Shown here piece by piece: positions 52,731-54,597 of a stretch of DNA of 64,000 nucleotides. The DNA lies in NCBI GenBank assembly GCA_965216625.1, contig OZ244186.1, positions 1,795,912 through 1,859,911 of the forward strand. Direction: 5' to 3'. The position numbers and the translations under genes were made by a program. Position 1 is the stretch's first letter, and every line of letters begins with the position of its first letter. Under the pieces are notes generated by a model. That model ran no database searches. It saw only the letters and a list, made by a program, of their open reading frames with translations, and was not told the origin of the DNA. Source of the stretch: Alphaproteobacteria bacterium (GTDB taxonomy: Bacteria; Pseudomonadota; Alphaproteobacteria; JABAAW01).

Positions 52731-53365
52731 GGTCTCTCTTCCTATGGTGGTGTTTAACGGATAAGTGCTTACCCTCTGTGCACTCGCGCACGATACCTAT
52801 CTCGCAGGCGCAAGTCAAGAGGGAAAACTCGTTGGGGGGTGTGGGAAGTTTTAACGGCACACGCTCGCGCAACAGACTTGCTTTGTATGATGACGGGCGC
52901 AAAACATGCGCACGCGAAGCGTGCGCGGGGGGTGTGGGGGGATAAATTCCCCCCACGAAGACCCCGCGTCAGCGGAGCGCGCGTAAGCGCGCTTTATCTA
53001 CGCGCGTAGCGCGTAGCCTCTTGTTCAAAAGCGCGAGGCTTTGCCTCGCGTAATACTGACTCTTAACACGGCAGGGAGGTTATGTTTTCCTCGCCCTAGA
53101 GACAAAAAAAATCGCGCGAAGCGCGCCTCTTATTCAAAAGCGCGAGGCAATAGCATGGGGACGCATACGGCAAGCCGTATGCTATGGCGCATCGCAAAGG
53201 CAGACACGGTTTCATCTACGCGCGAAGCGCGTAGCCTCTTATTCAAAAGCGCGAGGCTTTGCCTCGCGCAAGCTGACTCGTAACGCGGAATAAAGTTGTT
53301 GACTCTCTTTAAATAATAAGTTAGAAAACCAGCAGATTAAATACAATCTAACAAAGGAAAACAAA
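52731..53365. repeat. Mosaic hairpin-repeat array, forming the left bracket of the HNH gene
   Basis: It ends with 'gcgcgaggctttgcctcgcgcaagctgactcgtaac', the reverse complement of the module that begins the right bracket. Confidence 0.85.
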
Positions 53366-54103
53366 ATGCCTGCAATTAAAAGAACTTCTACAAATCCACG
53401 ATGGAGCAGAGATGAAATTATTCTTGTTTTGCATTTATATGTACAGAAAAAAGGTGTTGTTTCTGAAGCACTGGAAAAAATTTATAGTAAACACCTTATT
53501 GATCTTGCTATGATGAATGGTATTCTTGTAGAAAAATATGAAAATTTTAGAAGTCCTGATTCGATTAATCTTAGAATCAGAAATTTTATTTCGGGAGACA
53601 GTAATCCGCCAAATACAAAAGGGTTGAGTGGGGGAGGCGGTTTTTATAGAGAAATACAGAATGAATTTAAAAATAATTTTTCTGAATTAGAAAAAGAAGC
53701 AAAAAAAATTCTTTCTCGCATTAATAAATTTCAAAAACCTATAAAAGAAGAACTTTATGAAGCGCATGTTAACGAAGGAGGAATTCGTCTTTTTCGTCAT
53801 AAAAGTCGTGAAAGAAACGCAAAAATTGTTTCAGACAAAAAAGAAAAAACCCTTAAAGAAAAGGGGTTTTTATCTTGCGAGGTGTGTGAATTTAATTTTT
53901 TAGAAAAATACGGTGAACACGGAGAAAATTTTATCGAATGCCATCATAACAAACCGCTATCAGAAATGAAAGATGGCGACAAAACATCCCTTTCAGACCT
54001 ATCCCTTGTCTGTTCCAATTGCCATCGCATGATTCATAAGAAAAAAGAGTATTTAACTATTGAAGAATTAAAAGAAATTATCTCGAAAAATAAATTCCGT
54101 TAA
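53366..54103 (+). CDS. HNH endonuclease with an uncharacterised N-terminal (wHTH-like) domain; low-GC island
   Basis: A C-terminal HNH/zinc-finger nuclease motif is present: 'CEVCEFNF...IECHHNKPLSE...LVCSNCHRMIH'. The N-terminal 'NPRWSRDEIILVLHLY...NFISGDS' resembles the recognition domain of a widespread solo-HNH family sometimes annotated as putative restriction or modification-dependent endonuclease. There is a strong SD (aaggaaaac) and GC is ~33%. Confidence 0.8.
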   Translation: MPAIKRTSTNPRWSRDEIILVLHLYVQKKGVVSEALEKIYSKHLIDLAMMNGILVEKYENFRSPDSINLRIRNFISGDSNPPNTKGLSGGGGFYREIQNEFKNNFSELEKEAKKILSRINKFQKPIKEELYEAHVNEGGIRLFRHKSRERNAKIVSDKKEKTLKEKGFLSCEVCEFNFLEKYGEHGENFIECHHNKPLSEMKDGDKTSLSDLSLVCSNCHRMIHKKKEYLTIEELKEIISKNKFR

Positions 54104-54597
54104 TATTCTTTCTATCTCTATCTTCTAGGCAAAATTAAAAACGCTGTACCATGTTATGAGTCAGCTTGCGCGAGGCAAGCCTCGCGCTTTTGAATAAGAG
54201 GCGCGCTGCGTGCGATTCTTTTTGTCTCTAGGTAAGCGGAAAACAATCTCGCTGTGCCGTGTTGTGAGGCAGTATTGCGCGAGGCAAGCCTCGCGCTTTT
54301 GAATAAGAGGCTACACACTTTGCGCTACGCGCAAAGTGTGTAGAAGGCGCTTACGCGCCCCGCTGACGCGGGGTCTTTTGCGGGGGAACTTCGTCCCCCC
54401 ACACCCCCCATGCGCAAAACTCACTTCGCCTTACGGCTCGCTCGTCTTGCGTATGTTACCTAATGCAAAAAGCCCGTGTCTATCTCTGCGAAGCGCGCCC
54501 ATAAGGAAGCGCAAGCAAGCAGAGATAGACAAACACACAAGCGCGCCCGCAAGCAAGCAAACATAGCCAGACAAACACACAAGCGCACGCGCTCCCG
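54104..54597. repeat. Mosaic hairpin-repeat array, forming the right bracket of the HNH gene
   Basis: It starts with 'cttctaggcaaaattaaaaacgctgtaccatgttatgagtcagcttgcgcgaggcaagcctcgcg'. Confidence 0.85.

Follow-up and report, generated by a model that had tools for sequence, protein, structure and literature searches.

Why does a single AT-rich nuclease gene sit between inverted copies of an intergenic repeat, and does it drive that repeat or ride in it? The question is raised by a 64,000-nt stretch of an uncultured alphaproteobacterial genome (GenBank assembly GCA_965216625.1, contig OZ244186.1, positions 1,795,912 to 1,859,911; hereafter the window), in which the gene for an HNH endonuclease lies at the site between SpoU and holA. 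A preliminary description of the window had seen this gene as flanked by its own terminal inverted copies of a ~35-nt module. It offered two readings: a solo, modification-dependent (Type IV-like) defence nuclease that had landed in a repeat hotspot, or a nuclease functionally tied to the repeats. The explanation that we favour, with a probability of roughly two in three, is that a resident palindromic cargo slot houses the HNH gene as a single-gene cassette of defence type, and that homologous recombination through the arms of the slot is the probable route of its exchange. Many different cargos occupy the same elements, and the HNH gene is therefore a passenger of the repeats and not their engine: the arms are not its own terminal inverted repeats, and it neither makes nor moves them. 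In outline, palindromic elements reside at particular intergenic sites of this uncultured Alphaproteobacteria group, and their centres serve as slots for varied low-GC accessory genes, often with a role in defence, across sites and species. In the window, a cassette of ~820 bp fills the central linker of one such lineage-specific element, and cassettes would be swapped among strains and sites by homologous recombination via the common arms.

The starting observation is borne out. The HNH open reading frame (ORF) has a G+C content (GC) of 0.31 versus 0.56 window-wide, a Shine-Dalgarno AAGGA (53354-53358) stands 7 nt 5′ of its ATG as described, and inverted repeat copies flank it on both sides (Table 1). 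The copies are much longer than ~35 nt, however, the left arm measuring ~440 nt and the right arm ~320 nt. The inverted match between 52922-53148 and 54416-54179 is 243 nt long with 80.7% identity (E 7e-55); that between 53219-53284 and 54214-54153 reaches 89%. The two strings first compared (53249-53284 and 54153-54186) are indeed reverse complements, although they differ by one substitution and one loop indel rather than by one indel. Each arm is assembled from ~109-nt units in the order hp2 hairpin, GCCTCTTRTTCAAAAGCG, hp1 hairpin, AAGCTGACTCGTAAC and linker, with an outer module that holds the 18-mer AAGACCCCGCGTCAGCGG. Read from the outside inward, the left arm comprises a G-run hairpin, the invariant 18-mer (52958) and three units in which hp2, GCCTCTTRTTCAAAAGCG and hp1 are followed by CTGACTCGTAAC and a linker; the second unit is interrupted by 53149-53215. 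Short direct repeats (ACAAACACACAAGCGC...) occupy 54511-54592 in the outer edge of the right arm. Tandem Repeats Finder returned nothing at the locus, where the units are too few and too diverged, and Rfam gave no meaningful family at its gathering threshold across the whole window or at E ≤ 1 across the locus.

The flanks of the hp1 hairpin are fixed (TTCAAAAG ... AAGCTGACTC), and at least seven different, perfectly self-complementary stems are found between them across copies; thus it is the structure that is conserved. Reading outward from the cargo, hp1 is followed by TTTTG, as in a terminator. The hp1 hairpins point outward from the cargo and the hp2 hairpins inward, and the arms contain 18 terminator-like hairpins, in both directions, versus 3.2 ± 1.8 expected. 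Such bidirectional hairpins may insulate the arms' surroundings transcriptionally, shielding cargo and adjacent genes from each other's transcripts.

Between the arms lies little besides the gene itself. Only a few nucleotides separate the HNH stop codon from the point at which arm homology restarts, so the insert without repeat homology consists of a leader plus the ORF, ~820 bp in all. The leader contains TTGACT (53299-53304), a 17-nt spacer and TAGAAA (53322-53327), a promoter-like element and putative promoter whose spacing is also kept in a relative with 71% identity (L069); a second -10-like TACAAT is at 53342-53347. A consensus scan did not report the leader promoter. By codon comparison, the HNH protein is conserved under purifying selection: the ratio of nonsynonymous to synonymous substitution (dN/dS) is 0.24-0.32 inside the arm-embedded HNH clade and 0.12 against a 50% relative, and the gene is therefore functional. 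In a second strain of the species (L001), a 1-nt deletion in an A6GA6 run at ~10470-10480 of that locus (window 53843) splits the ORF, of which 178 aa are called. Either the gene became a pseudogene very recently in that strain, or the long-read assembly has a homopolymer error there. An exact-protein look-up found no identical record for the HNH and holA proteins of the window, and a scan for tRNA and tmRNA integration sites found none.

Table 1. Features of the window and of related loci (L numbers are our handles for loci in other genomes; match scores are E values)
Feature	Positions	Strand	Details
Left arm of palindromic element	52849..53290	+	self-BLAST, repeat finder, six-arm alignment, 18-mer positions
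hp1 hairpin GCGCGAGGC-ttt-GCCTCGCGC, innermost copy of left arm	53249..53269		
Further hp1 copies	53031-53051, 54168-54187, 54277-54296		
AT-rich cassette leader	53291..53365	+	sequence positions
HNH endonuclease gene	53366..54103	+	245 aa
Right arm	54104..54420	-	two units and outer module; 18-mer at 54360 on - strand
Outer edge, right arm to holA stop codon	54421..54597		family D1; similar sequence at other arm edges
Low-divergence tract versus L001	53234..54741		3 substitutions in 1397 aligned nt versus 1.98% overall
'+' arms, 18-mer positions	10929, 16533, 20300, 42644, 46803, 52958	+	
'-' arms, 18-mer positions	13191, 16829, 34074, 54360	-	
Empty element	16396..16911		'+' arm 16396-16705, '-' arm 16691-16911, ~60-nt linker
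Additional '+' arm	46750..46960	+	
SpoU-holA, L001			same species, 98% nt identity; arms and HNH cassette, without 6.3-kb segment 46878-53219
SpoU-holA, L055 (CBDCGG01)			HolA 89% identical; 474 bp of arms without any cargo
SpoU-holA, L056			HolA 82% identical; diverged arms, low-GC cargo with 151-aa lipoprotein-like ORF
SpoU-holA, L057			HolA 82% identical; no recognisable arms
CBDCGG01 cargo, L022	1416-4554		complete Zorya type II between inverted arms: ZorA2 3e-82, ZorB2 5.5e-73, ZorE2 2.3e-52
CBDCGG01 cargo, L026	3225-5187		type II methyltransferase and BanI/DpnII-like endonuclease, between inverted arms
CBDCGG01 cargo, L038			PDC-S57, 7e-36
CBDCGG01 cargo, L014	6665-7843		GmrSD-type HEC-05, 1.6e-120; Pfam GmrSD_N 1e-32
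CBDCGG01 cargo, L042			Sel1 protein
CBDCGG01 cargo, L033 and L034			small coiled-coil proteins
CBDCGG01 cargo, L030	5553-6653		recurrent protein family, 366-389 aa
CBDCGG01 cargo, L046	1549-2658		same family
CBDCGG01 cargo, L040	3349-4518		same family
CBDCGG01 cargo, L027 and L036			other proteins without assigned family
CBDCGG01, L039 and L055			no cargo

The same arms recur elsewhere. AAGACCCCGCGTCAGCGG marks ten arms in the window, and a single HNH copy is found among them. The arms are also present at eight or more further positions of the window, so that such a bracket does not single out the HNH gene, and the idea that it represents the gene's own terminal inverted copies falls away. One pair of arms, 37 kb from the HNH gene, forms an intact empty element of 516 nt, predicted to make a long foldback as single-strand DNA (-178 kcal/mol, z -14.9); the HNH cassette occupies the position equivalent to its linker. 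A Sel1-repeat gene (11088-12518, - strand, GC 0.42) sits tightly between inverted arms at 10861-11087 and 12511-13276. Its orthologous cargo in a sister genome is 290 aa long versus 476 aa in the window, and the repeat number differs.

A search with an 18-nt arm motif against 185,579 species genomes placed the repeat essentially only in that sister genome, the uncultured alphaproteobacterial metagenome-assembled genome CBDCGG01 (about 33 loci), plus two related bins; viral contigs and Joint Genome Institute (JGI) metagenomes gave zero matches. CBDCGG01 is ~90% identical to the window in syntenic genes. There the layout of '+' arm, cargo and '-' arm is recurrent. At least 15 unrelated cargos are bracketed by arms, including defence systems and unidentified membrane proteins. 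The GmrSD-type cargo lies on the inner side of a '+' arm at a locus that ends before any partner arm. Cargo orientation is random relative to the arms, and none of the cargos has a recognisable transposase gene. Foreign DNA can be predicted from arm polarity: in a set of 44 non-redundant arms, mean GC is 0.446 in the inner 600 bp versus 0.535 on the outer side, and the inner value is the lower one in 36 of the 44 (Wilcoxon p = 2.4e-7, with paired arms sharing cargo so that the comparisons are not fully independent). The recurrent family of 366-389 aa is a candidate new defence gene. Its members, which look like one family on their C-terminal sequence, are AT-rich with apparent C-terminal membrane segments; PADLOC gave no match, and Pfam gave DUF2207_C below threshold for the L046 member only.

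The SpoU-holA intergenic region was recovered from four further genomes via holA. It holds the HNH cassette in one, a different cargo in another, arms alone in a third and other content, with no recognisable arms, in the fourth. The three relatives of other species show no close HNH homologue, two of them having arms at this site and one being arm-rich throughout: no such homologue from CBDCGG01, L056 or L057 appeared among the database matches, though their proteins are in the database, and tblastn with the HNH protein gave zero matches in the CBDCGG01 loci. Arms are present in both the window species and CBDCGG01 at all three testable orthologous sites (SpoU-holA, Sel1 and the 33.8-kb site). 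The arms are therefore old residents, and it is the cargo that turns over at SpoU-holA.

Several observations suggest that the arms serve as portable homology for recombination: the low-divergence tract, the change in unit number, the gain or loss of a 6.3-kb segment and the likeness of arms across elements. Against L001, the tract spanning the cassette and right arm has 3 substitutions where ~28 would be expected, the lowest count of 182 sliding windows (median 23; 19.6 kb aligned). Unit number varies between strains, as a 109-nt unit of the right arm (54166-54274) is missing in L001. The segment at 46878-53219, bounded by direct '+' arms (46750-46960 and 52849-53290) and absent at the site in L001, L055, L056 and L057, was probably gained or lost through the repeat arms. 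Finally, the right arm of the HNH element is 87% identical to the right arm of the Sel1 element versus 81% to its own left arm. The tract, the unit indels and the gain or loss between direct arms are consistent with homologous recombination, without being proof of it. The 6.3-kb segment carries a giant gene for a 1857-aa Ca-binding/RTX-like repeat protein (47157-52730).

Two more specific schemes were discarded. Co-evolution of the arms of one element is ruled out by the closer match of the HNH right arm to its Sel1 counterpart. A fixed site-specific crossover point is disfavoured by the arm/cargo junctions, which vary from ~4 to ~50 nt past CTGACTCGTAAC.

A close precedent for this turnover is provided by the minimal mobile elements of Neisseria, in which alternative cargo, including restriction-modification (R-M) systems, lies between conserved genes and is exchanged by transformation and homologous recombination (PMC3082526). 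As in those elements, SpoU-holA holds alternative cargos or none in related genomes, the cargo is often defence-related, and the low-divergence tract suggests recombinational exchange. Unlike them, the homology comes from dedicated palindromic arms common to many sites and not only from flanking core genes, and the cargo lies at the symmetry centre of the element.

The foremost alternative, which we nonetheless judge unlikely, is that arms and cargo form a non-autonomous transposable cassette moved as a unit by a transposase encoded elsewhere. Empty elements would then be the form of a miniature inverted-repeat transposable element (MITE), and the HNH element would be its passenger-carrying form. 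Mobile insertion cassettes and MITEs with passenger genes (reviewed in PMC10969869) likewise have inverted terminal repeats around passengers without an internal transposase, and their empty versions coexist with filled ones. The long imperfect inverted repeats with their conserved outer module, the empty and filled elements side by side, the many dispersed copies within one lineage and the lack of recognisable transposases in the cargos all fit this idea. Yet two species at ~90% nucleotide identity share arms at three of three sites and differ in cargo only at SpoU-holA, which argues for resident elements rather than recent transposition. The arms are long and multi-unit, and their copies differ by 13-25% and have variable hairpin stems, which would not be expected of a MITE that had amplified recently; variation is confined to unit number and to the SpoU-holA cargo. 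Furthermore, the arm/cargo junction is not fixed, neither a target-site duplication nor a cognate insertion sequence was recognised, and the arm motif is absent from the viral contigs and JGI metagenomes.

What, then, does the resident cassette encode? The HNH gene adds a member to an HNH family that is large but uncharacterised. Its protein has 377 homologues in the database, almost all of which are 235-250 aa long and align end to end; they occur in Bacteroidota, Gammaproteobacteria, Armatimonadota and other phyla. In an AlphaFold model (predicted local confidence, pLDDT, 84), a five-helix domain (residues 15-123) is joined by a disordered linker (127-149) to a zinc-ribbon HNH domain (170-245) with the pattern CxxC...HH...CxNCH...H. 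Across 47 family members, C171xxC174, H193 H194, C216xN218C219H220 and H224 are invariant at the C-terminus, as are W13, D16, E17, Y25, R62 and N73 in the N-terminal domain. Pfam recognised only the HNH domain (PF01844, E 4.9e-7), a profile search matched EcoKMcrA (6ghc, E 5e-6), and NCBIfam gave no match to the protein. Family members bear 'McrA' as a label from their source.

For the N-terminal domain, the options first raised were EVE, YTH or SRA-like readers of modified bases versus a winged helix. The predicted fold is not a winged helix, nor is it that of a beta-rich reader of modified bases: the model is all-helical and nearest to homeodomain-like DNA binders, it corresponds to none of NEco, SRA, EVE/PUA, YTH, SBD or an m6A-sensing winged helix, and Foldseek found no solved structure matching it. 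Searched alone, the domain was found as a stand-alone ~115-aa protein, in HNH proteins of 340-450 aa that are extended at the N-terminus, and in fusions with AIPR_N (abortive infection) and with a GHKL ATPase. AIPR and GHKL partners are typical of conflict systems. The protein is probably a free-standing nuclease in which a helix-turn-helix (HTH)/homeodomain-like DNA-binding module directs a zinc-ribbon HNH catalytic domain, and its role is most likely defence against invading DNA.

HNH-type modification-dependent (Type IV) enzymes such as EcoKMcrA, TagI, VcaM4I and ScoMcrA (PDB 6ghc; PMC7145662, PMC7897488) offer a near comparison. Like McrA-type enzymes, the HNH protein is a free-standing single polypeptide with an N-terminal DNA-recognition module, a linker and a C-terminal zinc-ribbon HNH domain, the last being a beta-beta-alpha-Me HNH domain with zinc-binding CxxC pairs. 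Unlike them, its N-terminal domain has no sequence similarity to NEco and is all-helical and homeodomain-like rather than SRA, EVE or SBD. As this is not a known reader, modification dependence is unsupported.

A different role was considered, namely that the protein is a vertically inherited housekeeping or repair-type nuclease, for example an accessory to cytosine methylation like Vsr, whose position among repeats is incidental. Ten full-length copies of the family were found on plasmids. The three plasmid copies examined (L058, L059 and L060; Psychrobacter and Priestia) all adjoin R-M modules with a C5-cytosine methyltransferase, a setting that such a role would explain. Chromosomal relatives are solitary, among housekeeping neighbours and not beside C5-methyltransferase R-M modules; those neighbours, purifying selection and long residence in the lineage would also suit a housekeeping enzyme. 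The proposal nonetheless seems improbable. The HNH gene is present in one of four species at the syntenic site and may be frameshifted in L001, it is richer in AT than its host in each of the genomes examined, and no C5 methyltransferase adjoins it in the window. Its N-terminal domain is shared with AIPR and GHKL conflict-system proteins, and its slot is of the type that also holds bona fide defence systems.

The arms themselves recall the intergenic mosaic repeats, such as BIME/REP of E. coli, RIME of Rhizobium, and NIME and Correia elements of Neisseria (PMC2649163). Like BIMEs, RIMEs and NIMEs, they are lineage-specific, hairpin-rich, modular and intergenic with terminator-like stems, but they form ~500-nt palindromes with cargo at their centres. 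The superficial likeness to a RAYT locus, in which one gene lies between inverted repeat copies, ends with the gene: it encodes an HNH nuclease and not a Y1/HUH (IS200-like) transposase, and many unrelated genes are flanked alike. Repeat and gene also fail to co-occur, as CBDCGG01 is repeat-rich with no HNH homologue found and L056 has arms with a different cargo. To our knowledge, cargo-holding palindrome centres have not been described for BIME, RIME or NIME.

The second of the two initial readings, in which HNH is a homing endonuclease that cuts empty centres or a RAYT-like enzyme that makes and spreads the repeats, could appeal to the gene's place exactly at a palindrome centre, to its arm-embedded relatives, to the perfect homology that arms would supply for repair-mediated copying and to HNH being a common homing-nuclease fold, but it is very improbable and largely refuted by the distribution data: one HNH copy among ten arms, an intact empty element persisting 37 kb away, a sister genome with dozens of arms, an empty orthologous site and no detectable homologue, and at least 15 unrelated cargos at equivalent centres. 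The more distant members of the family, in other bacteria, stand alone with no inverted repeats at their flanks, and phages (50,697 records) gave HNH-domain matches only, with no full-length copy.

Several observations weigh against the cassette reading. The HNH genes of the window and L001, of L069 and L070 (71% identity) and of L071 (57%) all have inverted arms of one family on either side, and L069, at 71%, has its leader and 3′ junction in common with the window gene. With three diverged HNH relatives all in arms, the association must be old, and a functional link keeps a slight probability. The cassette nevertheless remains at 31% GC, as do all arm-embedded relatives, which fits awkwardly with simple vertical inheritance. 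A recent sweep, or a mutation rate that is uneven in AT-rich or hairpin DNA, could account for the low-divergence tract instead of exchange. No target-site duplication and no recombinase were recognised, although no search for a recombinase was made, and the reading gives no account of how foreign DNA first enters a palindrome centre, where junction offsets vary. On the defence side, the PADLOC matches of HNH are weak and partial (E 6e-5 to 3e-3), and the lack of a recognised reader fold leaves the 'Type IV' label unsupported.

In our reading, the HNH gene of the arm-embedded relatives was captured once, in an ancestor, and was then inherited or exchanged inside the lineage, as for the Sel1 cargo. 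Recent foreign acquisition as the sole story is ruled out by the leader and 3′ junction that the 71% relative shares. A metagenome scan for near relatives found only proteins of ≤42% identity, without arms. The first initial reading, a solo defence-type nuclease in a repeat hotspot, thus broadly survives, except that the gene has not freshly landed but is a long-resident cargo.

Other features of the window lie outside this comparison. For a low-GC 372-aa ORF in 32588-35002, the only NCBIfam match is a partial one with a MobB fusion protein, in the unknown domain of the latter (E 1e-19). After the ORF come one '-' arm (33789-34165) and the gene for an N6/N4 DNA methyltransferase (34274-35002). 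Its ortholog in L021 is 262 aa long, and the region may be half an element or an R-M-like pair. A low-GC NYN-domain gene (59688-60644) matches the PADLOC candidate HEC-09 (E 2e-38) with no flanking arms; it occurs at the same site in all relatives, with a length of 183-318 aa. Core genes near 54600-55700 and 32000-33000 show an extreme and unusual coding-strand G excess: in 100-nt windows, GC skew falls as low as -0.9 over holA (- strand), and it is as high as +0.57 over 32001-33000.

A bolder proposal, which we regard as tentative and rather doubtful at present, is that the elements constitute a previously undescribed gene-capture platform of this lineage, a set of dispersed chromosomal slots whose centres take up, keep and swap compact AT-rich cassettes for defence while their hairpins insulate them. 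Its cassettes would include HNH, Zorya II, R-M, GmrSD-like, PDC-S57 and several proteins without assigned function. Foreign DNA might enter by breakage at the palindrome centre followed by capture, a route on which we can only speculate. The mechanism could be recombinase-independent, combining palindrome breakage with arm homology, or could involve an unknown recombinase. Integrons invite comparison here, as their attC-bearing cassettes stockpile anti-phage defence genes (bioRxiv 10.1101/2024.07.02.601719; PMC12614218). In both, compact single-gene or small-operon cargo of a composition unlike the host abuts structured palindromic DNA and is enriched for defence, and, like attC, the repeat is conserved in structure more than in sequence. 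In contrast to integrons, there is no tandem array with one attC per cassette but inverted pairs of arms at dispersed sites, and no integrase was identified, though no genome-wide integrase search was made. Extrahelical bases are typical of attC, whereas the hairpin stems here are perfect palindromes without them, and the junction positions vary. A literature search for the arm-and-cargo architecture found no published description, which is absence of evidence and not proof of novelty; as far as can be told, it is a new variant of the hotspot and cassette theme.

For the HNH gene itself the outcome is sobering, as it is a passenger and no repeat-mobilising enzyme, and a 'Type IV' label is not backed by a sensor domain. 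The wider arm-and-cargo pattern is of more interest than the gene: a lineage-specific palindrome marks foreign, mostly defence-related genes. If this is true genome-wide, the arms would be a sequence signpost for new defence genes in uncultured Alphaproteobacteria, such as the 366-389-aa family and the HTH-HNH family, and a natural example of transcriptionally insulated cargo slots. They would also offer a testable case of accessory-gene flux being organised, with no obvious integrase, by the homology of repeats or by the fragility of palindromes. Should the gene-capture platform prove real, it would be a functional parallel to integrons with a different architecture, and the HNH gene would be one of a pool of cassettes containing new defence genes.

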